A stretch of DNA of 64,000 nucleotides. Source: Nitrosopumilus sp. Lineage in GTDB: Archaea > Thermoproteota > Nitrososphaeria > Nitrososphaerales > Nitrosopumilaceae. Location: NCBI GenBank assembly GCA_013911135.1, contig JACERO010000070.1, positions 15,263-79,262 on the forward strand. The letters are read 5' to 3'. The position numbers and the translations under genes are program-made. Shown one piece after another: positions 313 through 17,397 of the stretch (positions are counted from its first letter, which is position 1; each line of letters begins with the position of its first letter). The notes under the pieces were generated by a model. That model searched no databases and was not told where the DNA came from. It worked only from the letters and a program-made list of their open reading frames with translations.

Positions 313-501
313 TATTTTTTTGTCATAAAACGGGTAATAATCATCTGTTTGTTTTATTCAGACAAATAAAATTCAGAGTATTCTAGAATTAGATAAGACT
401 CTTGAAGTAGGATTGTTCATAATTTGTATCTAGATCGCTTTTTACCAACATATTCCTGTTTATCTACTGCCAAAGGTGTTTTGAATTAAATATCCCTTTT
501 T

Positions 502-774
502 TTGACTATCAGTATGGAAATTCACGTATATGATACCTATGTCAAAGCAGCAGATGGTCATACCATGCACTTTGATGTTATCACTGGTGAAAAAGATCAC
601 GATAAAGCCATCACATATGGCAAAGAGTGGTTAAAGTCAGTTAATGAGGAAAATGCAGAGATGACAACAAACGAGTGTCAATTCTGCCATTCATCACAAA
701 ATACACCAGAGCCTGTTGAGCAGGCAATTAAGGAAAAAGGCTACTTTATCCAAAAAATGGAAGGCTGTCCTTAA
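502..774 (+). CDS. DUF2024-family protein (probable start ATG at 514)
   Basis: IHVYDTYVKAADGHTMHFDV N-terminal motif plus C-terminal CQFCHS. Confidence 0.7.
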   Translation: MTISMEIHVYDTYVKAADGHTMHFDVITGEKDHDKAITYGKEWLKSVNEENAEMTTNECQFCHSSQNTPEPVEQAIKEKGYFIQKMEGCP

Positions 775-823
775 AACACTTTTTTCCCTTTTTCTAAAGA
801 TATATTTTTTAGATTAATAATAA

Positions 824-1012
824 AAACAACATTCAGATCACAAGTATTCAAAGTGTACAATAGAAGGAGATAAAAAAACAAAATGGATTTGCGGTTGTTT
901 TCTAACAGTAGATGATTATTTCAAATTCTGCGATATGCATAATGAAACTTTGAAAAAAGCAAATCAAGCTCAGGTTGATGAATTAGATATGACTCTACTT
1001 GTTGAAGATTAG
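824..1012 (+). other. Open frame without a start codon; possible small Cys-containing protein or its remnant
   Basis: 62 sense codons KQHSDHKYSKCTIEGDKKTKWICGCFLTVDDYFKFCDMHNETLKKANQAQVDELDMTLLVED*. The stop overlaps the hppA stop by 4 nt. Confidence 0.3.
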
Positions 1013-11394: not shown

Positions 11395-12923
11395 GTTTAG
11401 GTTTTGTTGTAGGTGAATCAAAACCCACATTTGTAACAGCAATTACTTCAAGAGTTCTATCGGTAGGTGAATATATCAAAATAGGTTCAGACGAGGGAGA
11501 AATTCTGGGATTAGTTGAAAGATCTTCTGTATCAAGTGCTGCCTTTACTGACGTCAGAAATTTTGATGAAGCAGAAGAAAGTACAGAGATTGCAGAACTT
11601 AACAAGAGAGACAAAACATTTACTGCACATATTGGGATTTTAGGATTTTTAGAAAATTTGAGAAAAGGGCAATCAATTATTCCTGCAATTCCACCAATTC
11701 CAGGCACAGAAATATCTCAACCAAGTAAACAAGACCTAGAAGAAATTTTCAGTCCAAAAAATGAAGGATGGGTAAAGATTGGAAATCTTTTACGAAACAA
11801 AACAATTGATGCCAAAATAAATTTGGATAAGATTGTTTCAAGACATCTAGGAATATTAGCAATGACAGGAATGGGTAAAAGTAATCTTGTATCATTAGTT
11901 ACAAAACAAATTTCAAAATTAAAAGGAACTGTAATAATTTTTGACTATCACAACGATTACACAGGTCTCAACATCCCACGTATCAATGTAATTGATGCAA
12001 AAATAAACCCTAGATTATTAGATGCAGACCAACTCTCAGAGGTATTAGAGATTAAAGATAATGCTACTGTTCAGCAACGAGTTTTAAGAATGGCATTTAC
12101 AAAACAAGTTAGAGACGCAAAAGAGTTTTGGATAAAATTAGAAAATGAGGTTGAGTTTATTGTAAATTCTGAAGAAAAAAAAATAAAAGAAATTCGATCC
12201 TCTGCATATAGAGTTCAAGACATCATAGAAGAAGTTCAAAAAAGATTTGAAGATATTTTAGATCCAGACATGGGAGATCCAATTAGTTTCATCAAAGAAG
12301 GTTGTGCAAATGTTCTTAATATTTCAGAATTATCTGAAAAACAAGCCAATGTTGCTCTAGCATTTTACTTGCAACAGTTACTCAAAGATAGAAAAGATGC
12401 AAGTATTGCAAGACACGGAAAAAGTAAAAGAGATAGAAATTATCAATTCAATTCACCTATTTTTGTAATAATAGAAGAAGCACATGTATTCATTCCAAAA
12501 GATCATGACACTAGTGCAAAGTATTGGGCTGCAAAAATTGCAAGAGAGGGAAGGAAATTCGGATTGGGTTTAGGAATTGTATCTCAGAGACCACGAAGTG
12601 TAGATCTAAATGTTCTCAGCCAGATGGGATCATTTGCCATAATGAAGATTATTCAGGAAGATGACCAACGTCAAATAGCCTCAGCCACAGAATCCACTAG
12701 TCGTGAATTGATATCTCAATTGACCTCACTTAATGTAGGAGATGCAGTTCTTGTGGGACAATGGACAAATCTACCGTCAATGGTACACGTTGAGGAAGTA
12801 AAAGAGAAAATTATGGGTGCAGATCAAAGTGCAATTAATGCTTGGGCAAAGGCAGATAAGATGAAAGAAATTGCAGTAGAATCAACACAAGGACTTGTTC
12901 AGAAAGATTTGTTGTTAGACTAA
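11391..12923 (+). CDS. herA: HerA bipolar DNA helicase/translocase
   Basis: N-terminal HAS barrel, RHLGILAMTGMGKS, IEEAH and REGRKFGLG..SQRP. Confidence 0.93.
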   Translation: MSLGFVVGESKPTFVTAITSRVLSVGEYIKIGSDEGEILGLVERSSVSSAAFTDVRNFDEAEESTEIAELNKRDKTFTAHIGILGFLENLRKGQSIIPAIPPIPGTEISQPSKQDLEEIFSPKNEGWVKIGNLLRNKTIDAKINLDKIVSRHLGILAMTGMGKSNLVSLVTKQISKLKGTVIIFDYHNDYTGLNIPRINVIDAKINPRLLDADQLSEVLEIKDNATVQQRVLRMAFTKQVRDAKEFWIKLENEVEFIVNSEEKKIKEIRSSAYRVQDIIEEVQKRFEDILDPDMGDPISFIKEGCANVLNISELSEKQANVALAFYLQQLLKDRKDASIARHGKSKRDRNYQFNSPIFVIIEEAHVFIPKDHDTSAKYWAAKIAREGRKFGLGLGIVSQRPRSVDLNVLSQMGSFAIMKIIQEDDQRQIASATESTSRELISQLTSLNVGDAVLVGQWTNLPSMVHVEEVKEKIMGADQSAINAWAKADKMKEIAVESTQGLVQKDLLLD

Positions 12924-14065
12924 TGTTATTTTCTCATATTTCAGACACACATTTAGGATTACTACAGTATGGATCAGAGGAACGTGCACAAGATGTGTAT
13001 GATGTGTTTAATCAATCAATTGATATTTCAATAAAAGATCATGTTGATTTTGTAATTTTTGCTGGAGATATTTTTCATGTGCCTAATCCAAATGGTACAG
13101 CTATAATTCAAATGGCAAATGGATTAAAGCAGTTAAAACAAAATAGTATTGATTCATTTTTTATTTTAGGAGAACATGATATTAGTAGAATTAGAACTAC
13201 ACCAATTCCATATGTATATCATAATTTAGAATTTTCAAAATATATTGGTCAAGGTAAGCCAATCGAATACAAAGAAATACTTCTTGCAGGATTTGATAAA
13301 ATTAGAAAAGCAGAAATTACAAAATATGAAGAAAAATTTGCAGAGGTGGACAAGTTTTCAGAAAATTTTTCGGGACATAAAATTTTAGTTTTACATCAAG
13401 GAATTACAGAATTCAACAAGTTTGCAGGAGAGATACAATCCACTGACTTGCCAAAAAACTTCACATATTATGCTATGGGACATCTTCATGATAAAGATGT
13501 AAAACAATTTAATCATCTAAATGGACCAATCGCTTATCCTGGTTCTATCGAATCAACAACTAGTGAAGGAATTAAAGAAACAAAAAAAGGATTCTTTGAA
13601 GTAGATATTTCTGGCAAAGATGCAAATCCAAATTGGATTCAATTAGATACAAGACCTCAATTTTCATTCAAAACAGAATACCAAGAATTATCAAAAACAA
13701 TTGACGAGATTTCTGAGAAAATAGTCAATTCTAGAAAAAAACCAATTGTAGAGGTAAAAATACATGGAGAAAATATTGAAACAGACCATATTCAGGCACA
13801 AATTGCCAAGCTAAATTCTCTAGTACTTAGATGTTTTTGGAGAATAACTACAAAACAAATTTCTGATTCATCTGTGTTCTTAGATAGACCAAATGTCATT
13901 GATGATGAAATGTTCAGACTATCAGTGGATGCCTTGGGTTCTGAACAAGCTGCAAGTTTTGCAATAAAGGAATTACTTCCTATTTTAGCATCTGGAGAAA
14001 TCAAAGAGGCATCTCAAATAATTATTGAAAATTTTGAGAAATACAAAAAGGAGAAAAAACAATGA
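12923..14065 (+). CDS. mre11: Mre11 nuclease
   Basis: HISDTHLG, FAGDIFH, GEHD, LHQG and GHLH phosphoesterase motifs; YPGS. Confidence 0.92.
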   Translation: MLFSHISDTHLGLLQYGSEERAQDVYDVFNQSIDISIKDHVDFVIFAGDIFHVPNPNGTAIIQMANGLKQLKQNSIDSFFILGEHDISRIRTTPIPYVYHNLEFSKYIGQGKPIEYKEILLAGFDKIRKAEITKYEEKFAEVDKFSENFSGHKILVLHQGITEFNKFAGEIQSTDLPKNFTYYAMGHLHDKDVKQFNHLNGPIAYPGSIESTTSEGIKETKKGFFEVDISGKDANPNWIQLDTRPQFSFKTEYQELSKTIDEISEKIVNSRKKPIVEVKIHGENIETDHIQAQIAKLNSLVLRCFWRITTKQISDSSVFLDRPNVIDDEMFRLSVDALGSEQAASFAIKELLPILASGEIKEASQIIIENFEKYKKEKKQ

Positions 14066-16140
14066 TTACATCAATAGAGCTTGGAGATTTTCTAGCACAT
14101 TCAGATACAAAATTAGAATTTGAAAATGGAGTCACAGTTTTCGTAGGAGATAATGGTGTAGGAAAATCAAGTATGATTGATGCAATAACATTTGCACTAT
14201 TTGGACAACATACAAGAAAATCAAACAAAAGTTTGATCAAACATGGTTCAAATCAAGGATTTGCAAAAATAGGATTTTCAATTAATAGTAAACAATACGA
14301 AGCAATAAGAAAAATAGATAACAAAGGAAGTCTTGCTGCAAAATTTTCTGAAATAATTGGAGATGATCGTGTTGAACTTGCAGCAGGTGAAAGAAAACAA
14401 TTTGGTGAATCAATGACTCATGAGATTGAAAAAACCATCGGTCTTAATTTTGAAAAATTAAAGATAGTATCAATAGTTCAACAAGGAGAATTAAATGCAA
14501 TCATTAATGCAAAACCGAAAGAATTCAAAGAATTACTTAATGCAATTATAGGAATTGACAAGCTTGATGTTGCATCAGAATCAATGAAGACTGTAAACAA
14601 AGAATTCCGTGAAAAAATAAGAGAGAAAATTGGATATGACGATACACATATTGAAAAATTATCACAAGATTTGGAAACATACCAAAAGGAAATCAAAGAA
14701 GATAAACCTAAAAAAAACCAATTAGAGACAAAACAAGAAAAATTACATAATAAAGTTGATGATTTAAGAAAAAAAGTAGAAACTGAAGCCCCAAAAATAG
14801 ACAAAATCAATCAACTGGAATTAAGAAAAAAAGAGCTATTAGAATATGCAAAAGAAGCAATCCATGAAATTCAGCATGGAATTAATGAAAATGAGAGTAA
14901 AATACGTGATTGCAAAGGCTGTTTTGAGCATGCAGGTCTGAAAGAGGATTTAGAGTCTAAAATACAAAAAGTGGAGCAAGCAATAGAAGATACTTTAAAG
15001 AAAATCCAAGAGCTAACAAACCAAACTGCATCCTTAAAAGAGAAACAATTGTTAGCATCAAAACTCCAACTAAAAGACAACAAATGTCCAGTATGTGATT
15101 CACATGTTGAAAAATTAAATCCACTTTTCCAAGAAGAACATCTCAAACAAGAATTGATATCAATAAAAGAAGAAATTATTTCAAAAGAAAAAGAAAGAGA
15201 CATCTATAATCAAAAAAGAAAAGAATTTTCAGAGAAATTACAAAATGCAAGAGATGCAGAAGCAACACTTAGAGCTTATTCAATTAACAATAAAGAAGAA
15301 TTAATGAAAATCCAAGAAGACGTAGAGATAAAGAGACAAAATATACAAAAAATTCCTTTATCTTCTAATGGAAATTTGTTAAAAATATCACAAATAGATT
15401 CGCATGCAAAAATGATTTTTCAAAATATTTCAAAATTAGAAACTGAGACTAGGGGATTTAATGAACAAGAATTTACAAATCTTAAAAAATTAGTAAATGA
15501 AAAACAAATGAATCTATCTCAAATAGACCAACAAATTGGTGCAATTTCAGAAAAAATTTCTAAAGGAGAAAACCAAATCAATATAATTCAAAATGTAATT
15601 TCAGAACTAAATGTTGTAAAAGAATATGTAACAAATCTTAATGAAATTCAAACTAGTGTGTTTAGTAGAGATGGACCTGTTGCAACAAGTCTAAGATCAT
15701 GGGCACTAAATACAATATCTGCTAAAGCGTCAGAATATCTTTCATTACTTAATACAAAAATTCAGAGGATTTTATTATCAGAAAAAACAAGAGATGTTTC
15801 CATTACTTGTTATTCAAAAAATGAAATATTAGAATTGGAATCTCTTAGTGGAGGAGAGAAGGTAAGTGTAGCATTGGCCCTACGATTAGGCATGGCAAGC
15901 CTTCTAGGAGCATCAAATCTTAATCTAATGATACTTGATGAGCCTACAACACATCTTGATGCTGAGAGAAAAAAATCTCTAGTAGGAGTATTGTCTCAGT
16001 TATCAAATATTTCAAATTCAGAAACACCAATGCAATTTCTAATAATTACACATGATGCAGAAATATTTGAGGATTCAACTGTGGAAAGAATTTACAAATT
16101 TGAATCATCTGAACAAGGAAGTAAAGTTACTGCACTTTAA
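14062..16140 (+). CDS. rad50: Rad50 ATPase
   Basis: GDNGVGKSS, Q-loop VQQGE, coiled coil with CPVC zinc hook, LSGGE, ILDEPT and IITHD. Confidence 0.93.
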   Translation: MITSIELGDFLAHSDTKLEFENGVTVFVGDNGVGKSSMIDAITFALFGQHTRKSNKSLIKHGSNQGFAKIGFSINSKQYEAIRKIDNKGSLAAKFSEIIGDDRVELAAGERKQFGESMTHEIEKTIGLNFEKLKIVSIVQQGELNAIINAKPKEFKELLNAIIGIDKLDVASESMKTVNKEFREKIREKIGYDDTHIEKLSQDLETYQKEIKEDKPKKNQLETKQEKLHNKVDDLRKKVETEAPKIDKINQLELRKKELLEYAKEAIHEIQHGINENESKIRDCKGCFEHAGLKEDLESKIQKVEQAIEDTLKKIQELTNQTASLKEKQLLASKLQLKDNKCPVCDSHVEKLNPLFQEEHLKQELISIKEEIISKEKERDIYNQKRKEFSEKLQNARDAEATLRAYSINNKEELMKIQEDVEIKRQNIQKIPLSSNGNLLKISQIDSHAKMIFQNISKLETETRGFNEQEFTNLKKLVNEKQMNLSQIDQQIGAISEKISKGENQINIIQNVISELNVVKEYVTNLNEIQTSVFSRDGPVATSLRSWALNTISAKASEYLSLLNTKIQRILLSEKTRDVSITCYSKNEILELESLSGGEKVSVALALRLGMASLLGASNLNLMILDEPTTHLDAERKKSLVGVLSQLSNISNSETPMQFLIITHDAEIFEDSTVERIYKFESSEQGSKVTAL

Positions 16141-16919
16141 CTAACATTAACAATTCCGACCATCCAAGGATGAACCATACAAAAGTAATCAAAAGTTCCT
16201 ACATCATTGAATGTAAATTCAAAAGTATCACCAGACATGAATATGCCAGAATCAAATAATTCATCAATTCCACTTACAGGATGTCCACTAGTTACAGTAT
16301 GTACAGCACTATCATCATTACTCCAAGTCACTGTTGCACCTGCTGTTACAGTAACTTCATAAGGCAAATAACATTCTATAGTTTCTTCATATCCTGGGAC
16401 TCCAACACCTGCAGGAATTGAAATAGTTGTGACCATTGGTAATGTTTCTGGTTCAGGTTCTACTTCTGGTTCTACTTCTGGTTCAGGGACAACAGTCATG
16501 GTAGTTACAATTCCCTTTGGTTCAGATATATCATCACCATGACCTAAACCTTGTAAAGTAATTTGAATTTCAAGCGGAGATTCATCTAGTATAGTAGTTT
16601 CATGAATTGGATGTTTTCCAGGATGTCTATGAGAACCAGGTTCTGAGAGAATTGTATTCCCATCTTGTGTTACAGATATATCATAATTCACATGATCAAC
16701 AATATTCTTATCATCATCTCTAAATTCAACTTCAATAAGTAAAACATCACCTACAGTTGCAGTTTTAGGCATAATGTAGGAATTAACAGAAATTTGTTCA
16801 ATAGGAATTATTCGGGGTTGGATAATATCATCTGGAGATGTTGCAATCAGTCCTAAAATTCCTGCAGCAAGAACACCAACAATAATTATTACACCATATG
16901 CAAAATTCATCTTATCCAC
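16137..16919 (-). CDS. Membrane-anchored type-1 (blue) copper cupredoxin/plastocyanin-like protein
   Basis: N-terminal TM helix, PEVE linker, and C-terminal WSNDDSAVHTVTSG...YFCMVHPWM carrying the His-Cys-His-Met ligands. Confidence 0.88.
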   Translation of the reverse strand: MDKMNFAYGVIIIVGVLAAGILGLIATSPDDIIQPRIIPIEQISVNSYIMPKTATVGDVLLIEVEFRDDDKNIVDHVNYDISVTQDGNTILSEPGSHRHPGKHPIHETTILDESPLEIQITLQGLGHGDDISEPKGIVTTMTVVPEPEVEPEVEPEPETLPMVTTISIPAGVGVPGYEETIECYLPYEVTVTAGATVTWSNDDSAVHTVTSGHPVSGIDELFDSGIFMSGDTFEFTFNDVGTFDYFCMVHPWMVGIVNVS

Positions 16920-17397
16920 CTGTTAATTTTGCAAACTTTTCGTTCTTACTTAACTTTTCCATAAATTGAATATTAGATAATGCAATAATTGCAGATTCAA
17001 CTACCGATTTATCAGGATCATTTAATGCCTTTTCCAGAGTTTCTTTTGCGCTTTTGGAGCTGACAACACCCAAAGCAATGGCTGCTTCATGTCGTACAAA
17101 CATACTTGGATCATTGAGCGTTGCATCATTTAGTGGAGGTATAGCACTAGAGTAACACATCTGACCTAATGAAAACGCAGCTTCATGACGCACCAATTCA
17201 TTTTCATCGTTTTTTAAAACTTTGGCAATATAGGGAATTTTATCCTCTCCACCAAAATCAAGCAAAATACAGGTGGCTCTTGTTCTAACTACATAATCAG
17301 GATGTTCTAAAAGAGAAACAAAATACTCTGTATCTTTTTGTTCATATTTTGACTCCATTTCAACAAAAAGTGATAATCTATCATCAGTTACTAGCAA
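16912..17397 (-). CDS. HEAT/PBS-lyase repeat protein with two His-Glu motifs (resembles half of deoxyhypusine hydroxylase)
   Basis: LVRHEAAFSLGQM and FVRHEAAIALG repeats 32 aa apart. Confidence 0.75.
   Translation of the reverse strand: MLVTDDRLSLFVEMESKYEQKDTEYFVSLLEHPDYVVRTRATCILLDFGGEDKIPYIAKVLKNDENELVRHEAAFSLGQMCYSSAIPPLNDATLNDPSMFVRHEAAIALGVVSSKSAKETLEKALNDPDKSVVESAIIALSNIQFMEKLSKNEKFAKLTGG

Follow-up and report, generated by a model that had tools for sequence, protein, structure and literature searches.

A gene for a half-size protein resembling deoxyhypusine hydroxylase (DOHH) lies on a 64,000 nt stretch of the genome of Nitrosopumilus sp. (assembly GCA_013911135.1, contig JACERO010000070.1, positions 15,263 to 79,262), hereafter referred to as the window. 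Judged by its sequence, the product is homologous to DOHH but has a single lobe, in which every ligand of a DOHH lobe is present, and it is not a canonical two-lobe member. The best reading of the evidence, held here with moderate confidence, is that a homodimer of this protein would rebuild the diiron site of the eukaryotic enzyme and hydroxylate deoxyhypusine on the archaeal translation factor aIF5A. The observations in its favour are the sequence match, invariant metal ligands, natural fusions of two lobes, the predicted fold of one such fusion, and gene linkage to the hypusine pathway, observed in two other lineages. Eukaryotes cannot do without hypusine on translation factor 5A, and some archaea have it as well. 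Papers published from 2016 to 2021 record that a DOHH orthologue was not found in archaea (PMC5178350, PMC6105217, PMC7773846, PMC8153317), with which the statement of the initial annotation that no archaeal DOHH had been identified agrees, and full-text searches turned up neither a paper naming an archaeal DOHH nor a report on hypusine in Thaumarchaeota. Several metagenomic copies of the gene already carry the automatic JGI name 'deoxyhypusine monooxygenase'. The half-size protein is best described as a candidate archaeal hydroxylase, a variant of a known enzyme, and not as the universal 'missing archaeal DOHH'.

The open reading frame (ORF; Table 1) and its two His-Glu motifs, which the initial annotation had placed 32 aa apart, are both confirmed in the sequence, with the two pairs, separated by 32 residues, being spanned by the internal segment NELVRHEAAFSLGQMCYSSAIPPLNDATLNDPSMFVRHEAAIALG. 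Orthologues of the window protein are 162 aa in length and begin with MQVVTDDRL, and the conservation of R7, L10, E13 and M14 within the N-terminal helix indicates that the translation start is upstream of the first internal ATG. The window protein is without a signal peptide. Pfam recognises generic repeats only (HEAT_2, E = 1e-40; HEAT_PBS), whilst NCBIfam yields only sub-threshold matches to NblB and CpcE; scored against the curated NCBIfam cut-offs, the protein reaches 35.9 of the 300 needed for NblB, 23.4 of 330 for CpcE, 15.5 of 220 for CpcF and 19.2 of 600 for CpeY. The AlphaFold2 monomer is an all-helical hairpin stack with a mean predicted local distance difference test score (pLDDT) of 92.9, which declines over the last dozen residues to ~59 and then 43.

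With regard to proteins of known structure, a phmmer search of all PDB chains identifies human DOHH (4d4z, E = 1.7e-23) as the best natural match. Designed alphaRep consensus proteins top the whole-sequence ranking because of their many repeats per chain; the highest single-domain score of any PDB entry, however, belongs to the N lobe of DOHH (45.9 bits), with the best alphaRep domain scoring 42.4 bits. The two pairs of the query align on H56E57/H89E90 within this N lobe and on H207E208/H240E241 within the C lobe (38.7 bits), and both the LGQ that follows His-Glu and an AIP motif are likewise aligned. The DOHH sequence quoted in the initial annotation is essentially right, as the alignment displays ...lkHElayclgqmqdaraipml...mvrHEagealg..., with the pairs 33 residues apart. 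In the human enzyme, H56, H89, E90, H207, H240 and E241 hold the diiron centre, and E57, E90, E208 and E241, together with two glycines, bind the deoxyhypusine chain (PMC9117371). Glu72 and Gly78 of the window protein align on human Glu57 and Gly63, although Gly78 carries little weight because a glycine also occurs in the generic repeat consensus.

Eukaryotic DOHH (human 4d4z/4d50; yeast Lia1; EC 1.14.99.29) is, like the window protein, composed of HEAT_PBS-type repeats arranged four per lobe, and in both proteins the His-Glu pairs reside in repeats 2 and 3, with a spacing of 32 residues in the window protein and 33 in human DOHH. The window protein has only half the length, consisting of one lobe with two pairs, whereas DOHH possesses ~300 aa, eight repeats and four pairs, and identity between the two is ~28–30 %. 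They also terminate differently, with an F-x-K-x-T-G-G tail in the half-size family and an F/Y-rich tail in eukaryotic DOHH. The common four-repeat layout, the location of His-Glu in repeats 2 and 3, and the alignment of Glu72 and Gly78 bear out a specific relationship to one DOHH lobe.

Absence of the His-Glu motifs from orthologues had been named at the outset as a result that would speak against the proposal; they are in fact conserved: 119 of 120 close orthologue clusters retain both pairs, as does each relative examined down to ~50 % identity, among Nitrosopumilaceae, Nitrososphaera-like and Caldarchaeum-like proteins (the last being our provisional label for family f12, which includes genome G026). 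The pairs are present in all 17 half-size relatives of the tree described below and in 59 of 59 DOHH-type lobes overall, and both are invariant in alignments A1, A2 and A3. When the family is aligned jointly with full-size proteins from DPANN archaea and with eukaryotic DOHHs, none of the four His-Glu pairs varies. In the 14 generic HEAT windows of highest similarity, drawn from a library of 1.8 billion proteins, His is absent from both of the corresponding positions, which show 8–10 different residues. These two positions are on the concave surface, and are hypervariable in binders of the same repeat type. A search of a representative library returned a top 150 made up almost entirely of giant multi-repeat proteins with summed scores, from which a handful of short relatives were usable. 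CpcE/CpcF, NblB, Escherichia coli YibA, Methanothermobacter thermautotrophicus MTH187 and the designed alphaReps derived from such proteins share the repeat type and monomer fold with the window protein, but generic proteins of this PBS-lyase type are without His-Glu at the two concave positions, and form continuous solenoids rather than paired lobes.

Comparison with generic PBS-lyase HEAT proteins by phylogeny, as proposed in the initial annotation, was performed using a maximum-likelihood tree of individual lobes that included 17 half-size relatives and 14 generic HEAT windows. The His-Glu lobes form a separate side of this tree, apart from the generic windows (support 100/99), a split that persists when the four His-Glu columns are masked (Shimodaira–Hasegawa-like approximate likelihood ratio test, 95). 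The eukaryotic N and C lobes pair with one another (100/92), as do those of the DPANN proteins (100/99), whilst the two lobes of a third fused protein, P0121, pair (97/80) inside the Nitrososphaeria half-size clade. The half-size clade itself is nested inside no fused lobe pair. The simplest reading of this topology would be three independent duplication-fusions of a half-size gene, a reading that gene conversion between lobes, the short alignment or the choice of outgroup could alter. The suggestion that the window protein resembles a form preceding duplication fits the lobe tree, in that each fused pair groups with its own partner.

The DPANN members of this set are four-His-Glu HEAT proteins of ~280 aa (e.g. 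P0317 from 'Nanoarchaeota archaeon' and P0301 from GCA_964384165.1), some of which have been automatically named deoxyhypusine monooxygenase. Like the half-size family, they are archaeal, have invariant pairs and fall on the same side of the tree (89/75). Unlike the one-lobe window protein, they contain two lobes per chain that arose from their own duplication, the second pair of each lobe has the form K/I-H-E-C/G, and the C-terminus reads PYSGK.... Their gene neighbourhoods (PCNA / TatD / NOG1-type GTPase) yielded no synthase gene; the copy in GCA_964384165.1 adjoins PCNA and NOG1-type GTPase genes.

P0121 is a natural tandem fusion of 363 aa, encoded on metagenomic contig L131, and each of its two lobes is ~52 % identical to the window protein. 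The tail of the first lobe is degenerate, the second lobe ends ...KFARLIGG, and the N-terminus is signal-peptide-like. A model built from an alignment with DPANN and eukaryotic relatives has a predicted template modelling score (pTM) of 0.80, with a low-confidence linker. It superposes on human DOHH with a template modelling score (TM) of 0.82–0.83 and a root-mean-square deviation (rmsd) of 4.6 Å over 306 columns, compared with TM ≤0.5 and rmsd >12 Å against continuous-solenoid repeat proteins. As a prediction, this model shows the lobes of the half-size family to be compatible with the DOHH clamshell.

The gene for P0121 belongs to what looks like a hypusine/polyamine cluster on this Woesearchaeote contig (Logan SRR21363124; 7.9 kb of it examined), arranged as IF5A-like (−), deoxyhypusine synthase, Orn/Arg decarboxylase-like, CN-hydrolase, agmatine deiminase, P0121 and a further IF5A-like gene (−). 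Both IF5A-like products are above the Pfam cut-off, the first being a protein of 221 aa with a long acidic N-terminus and the loop KAGKHGGPK, and the second having the loop AKTGKQGHIK. The synthase is 65–77 % identical to Woesearchaeota synthases, which identifies the source as a DPANN archaeon; this organism seems to have acquired a Nitrososphaeria-type lobe gene. A TauD/GBBH-like dioxygenase gene is located at the edge of the contig.

A second linkage is found in a Caldarchaeum-like genus (g97), where two synthase genes, (+) and (−), are followed after 75 nt by the His-Glu HEAT gene (+), with the same adjacency occurring in a second genome. In the first genome, a ferritin-like gene is situated 0.6 kb downstream of the HEAT gene. 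In another Caldarchaeum-like genus (g26, seven genomes) the HEAT gene and one synthase gene are separated by 5.0 or 7.3 kb. The two independent linkages, in g97 and on L131, to the preceding enzyme of the hypusine pathway are suggestive, but not conclusive.

The distribution of the gene was assessed across 401 genomes sampled from the phylum Thermoproteota, with a score of >200 bits defining a full-length orthologue. Such orthologues were recovered from 54 of the 56 genomes of the Nitrosopumilaceae, the family to which the window belongs, from each of the three genomes representing two other families of the same order, from nine of 17 genomes of family f12 (plus one broken copy) and from two of three genomes of family f31; none was detected at this threshold in the ~55 other Thermoproteota families sampled. 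Similarly, the Pfam HEAT_2 model has no match in Sulfolobus acidocaldarius or Methanocaldococcus. Pyrodictium and Thermoproteus are strict anaerobes. Hypusine has been reported in both of these genera, as well as in Sulfolobus and Acidianus (Prunetti et al., PMC5178350). Its occurrence in anaerobes, together with the lack of the family from Crenarchaeota, points to another, O2-independent route of hydroxylation in those organisms, and the half-size family is consequently not a general archaeal solution. The original suggestion of a candidate archaeal DOHH is partly supported, for a family with a match to one DOHH lobe, but not in the sense of a general archaeal DOHH, given the ~55 sampled families in which no orthologue was detected.

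The remainder of the pathway can be followed in the window genome, which is 98.6 % complete and encodes an aIF5A with a KPGKHGSAK loop (contig 40) and two PF01916 synthase genes (contigs 22 and 49). Both components are necessary, but not discriminating, because they are universal in archaea. Two PF01916 paralogues occur in all Nitrososphaeria genomes checked (G000 L001, L002; G201, G122, G279, G377, G389, G381); in the window genome they are ~27 % identical to each other, and in several genomes they are directly adjacent. Apart from the half-size protein, the window genome encodes no strong HEAT protein, such that a homodimer would be the sole way to arrive at four His-Glu pairs. A generic HEAT gene that has no His-Glu pairs (G000:C63:13276-13828, L129) consists of two adjacent ORFs of 83 and 79 aa, and may be split or decaying. 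Ammonia oxidisers are obligate aerobes, as an O2-dependent enzyme requires.

In the proposed mechanism, two 161-aa copies would pair face to face, in the manner of the N and C lobes of eukaryotic DOHH. Each copy would supply His71, His103 and Glu104 to one iron, corresponding to human H56/H89/E90 and H207/H240/E241, and an O2-binding, non-haem diiron centre would thereby be assembled from the two copies. The lining of the channel that receives the substrate side chain would include Glu72 and Gly78, the counterparts of E57/E208 and G63/G214. Deoxyhypusine, made by deoxyhypusine synthase on the lysine of the aIF5A KPGKHGSAK loop, would serve as substrate and be converted to hypusine. What we infer in this scheme is that the protein dimerises and binds iron, along with the identity of its substrate and the origin of its reducing equivalents.

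Coordinates of the gene, its pairs and tail, and the adjacent genes are collected in Table 1.

Table 1. Features of the half-size gene and its neighbours in the window (nt positions of the window)
Feature	Position	Strand	Remarks
Half-size DOHH-like protein gene	16912..17397	−	161-aa ORF, TTG start; four HEAT_PBS-type repeats and C-terminal tail
His71-Glu72, repeat 2 (VRHEAAFSLGQM)	17182..17187	−	Codons CAT GAA
His103-Glu104, repeat 3 (FVRHEAAIALG)	17086..17091	−	Codons CAT GAA
C-terminal tail F155-A-K157-L-T159-G160-G161	16915..16935	−	F155, K157, T159, G160 and G161 invariant in alignment A1
Membrane-anchored cupredoxin-domain protein, 260 aa	16137..16919	−	Pfam Copper-bind, E = 2.4e-6; downstream of the HEAT gene
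Mre11-like phosphoesterase (380 aa) and Rad50-like ATPase (692 aa)	12923-16140	+	Mutual 4-nt overlap

The tail of the protein is conserved as well, with F-x-[K/R]-x-T-G-G forming the very C-terminus throughout the half-size family, from Nitrosopumilus to the Caldarchaeum-like and Nitrososphaera-like copies, and a TGG ending found in 120 of 120 close orthologue clusters. In the joint alignment, the F-x-K-x-T-G-G tail is missing from the eukaryotic and DPANN proteins. A role for the C-terminal Gly-Gly as a ubiquitin-like conjugation signal was considered and is unsupported, the fold being HEAT and not beta-grasp. In a single case, a Caldarchaeum-like genome (G026), an 89-aa MoaD/ThiS-like protein that itself ends in Gly-Gly is encoded as the divergent neighbour of the His-Glu HEAT gene (L117, 6575-6844 (+)), and genes for aerobic carbon monoxide/xanthine dehydrogenase-type subunits are located downstream at this locus.

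In the window, the cupredoxin gene begins at a GTG within the HEAT gene, giving an overlap of 8 nt, and has an in-frame ATG at 16910; the two genes are translationally coupled and probably co-transcribed. The cupredoxin is treated here as a neighbour, not as a component of the enzyme. It combines a C-terminal copper domain of plastocyanin type with a linker rich in Pro, Glu and Val (PEPEVEPEVEPEPE), and is probably external. The Mre11-like and Rad50-like genes converge on the cupredoxin gene, the 3′ end of which overlaps that of the Rad50-like gene by 4 nt. A contig scan for neighbourhoods retained 80 loci, all of them from Nitrosopumilaceae, and in 70 of these a cupredoxin homologue directly follows the HEAT gene in the same orientation; 76 of the 80 retain a thioredoxin-like neighbour and 52 retain Rad50. 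The cupredoxin neighbour was not at that position in the Nitrososphaera-like and Caldarchaeum-like loci examined. The coupling to cupredoxin was set aside as a functional clue, as it is confined to Nitrosopumilaceae, whose gene neighbours are broadly conserved.

A number of observations weigh against the assignment of the half-size protein as a homodimeric deoxyhypusine hydroxylase. When the four His-Glu residues are masked, the family profile gives DOHH lobes 55–79 bits and the best generic HEAT windows 70–85 bits; since masked DOHH lobes score no better than generic windows, the specific link depends largely on these four residues and the shared layout. Similarly, the monomer model matches the lobe of 4d4z with TMq 0.74 and an rmsd of 4.2 Å, but fits designed alphaRep proteins equally well. 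The case is therefore one of ligand pattern, four-repeat layout and context, and not of overall similarity. The DOHH-like packing of P0121 is partly circular, because the alignment used for folding contained eukaryotic DOHHs. With regard to context, the HEAT gene is not near synthase or aIF5A genes in the window genome or its family, being coupled instead to the cupredoxin gene, and three related Woesearchaeote synthase loci have a synthase-decarboxylase pair only and no HEAT gene, which makes the pathway cluster around P0121 a single observation. Full-text searches turned up no report on hypusine versus deoxyhypusine on the aIF5A of Nitrososphaeria, and these organisms might also use the other route of hydroxylation indicated for Crenarchaeota. 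Finally, another half-size protein with two His-Glu pairs, a divergent paralogue, is encoded by around half of the sampled Nitrosopumilaceae. The example at L127 (G084:C1:148300-149700, ORF 475..978 (−)) is 167 aa in length, with the motifs VRHEVCYQIAG and VRHEAIECLG and the C-terminus KEFVAEDEYVSY, and the start of its gene overlaps the 3′ end of a CheY-type response-regulator gene by 4 nt, a neighbour that hints at roles outside translation. This paralogue was not found in the window genome, where the only match is the target gene itself (41 % identity).

Several of these points would be accommodated by a rather unlikely alternative, in which the protein is indeed a DOHH-like homodimer with a diiron or other metal site, but does not act on aIF5A, serving instead as an oxygenase or oxidase for another substrate, or sensing O2, iron or NO. 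Although the metal ligands follow a conserved pattern, the neighbour in Nitrosopumilaceae is a cupredoxin gene and not translation genes, and the overlap of the paralogue with a receiver gene, the invariant tail that has no DOHH counterpart, and the production of hypusine by Crenarchaeota that lack the family can all be read in the same way. Set against this, both close linkages involve deoxyhypusine synthase, with one extending to IF5A-like and polyamine genes, the human deoxyhypusine-binding residues E57 and G63 are conserved in the window protein, and conserved neighbours across the class point to no alternative substrate.

Most PBS-lyase-type HEAT proteins are non-catalytic adaptors or chaperones, and it is conceivable, although less probable again, that the window protein is another, using its His-Glu residues for protein binding or for a structural or transferable metal, e.g. 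one destined for the cupredoxin. Its generic Pfam and NCBIfam matches, its undistinctive monomer fold and the fact that, with His-Glu masked, it is as near to generic HEAT repeats as to DOHH are what would be expected of such a protein, as is the 8-nt overlap with a cupredoxin gene that is paired with it in 70 of 80 family loci. However, from ammonia oxidisers through to eukaryotic DOHH, identical His-Glu residues are maintained at positions that vary freely in binders, a finding that is difficult to reconcile with an adaptor, as are independent tandem fusions that restore the four-pair layout. Moreover, the cupredoxin neighbour is seen only in Nitrosopumilaceae, the genomes of which are broadly syntenic, and a membrane-anchored, probably external cupredoxin contrasts with a window protein devoid of a signal peptide. 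An obligate heterodimer, in which the protein would function solely in combination with a different lobe, is highly improbable: whilst the two-His-Glu paralogue (~170 aa) of around half of the sampled Nitrosopumilaceae could provide such a lobe, no second copy was found in the 98.6 % complete window genome, and most of the Caldarchaeum-like genomes listed have a single match.

Returning to the reading of the half-size protein as a homodimeric hydroxylase, the lobe tree allows a further, more tentative step, which we regard as possible rather than likely. The protein may be a surviving ancestral DOHH, a homodimeric diiron hydroxylase from aerobic archaea that was converted into a fused chain on at least three separate occasions (eukaryotes, DPANN archaea and one Woesearchaeote). 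If this were true, O2-dependent hypusine formation would predate or parallel eukaryogenesis, and there would be two unrelated archaeal ways of hydroxylating deoxyhypusine. The Woesearchaeote fusion gene would have come from a Nitrososphaeria-like donor, and in the archaeal enzyme the Thr-Gly-Gly tail would serve for docking or regulation, as an element not described before.

The window protein thus offers the hypusine and archaeal translation fields a small, soluble and easily expressed candidate from cultivable ammonia oxidisers, for which the predictions are dimerisation, the binding of two irons and a blue peroxo intermediate. Should it fail to act on aIF5A, it would still have to be explained why the sole HEAT protein of a streamlined genome has a conserved diiron-type site. 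Should it be active, it would illustrate a path from a symmetric homodimer to the pseudo-symmetric eukaryotic enzyme, and 'HEAT repeat' or 'PBS lyase' labels would be replaced on thousands of archaeal genes. Deoxyhypusine hydroxylation in aerobic archaea would then proceed by a route unlike that of the anaerobic Crenarchaeota.

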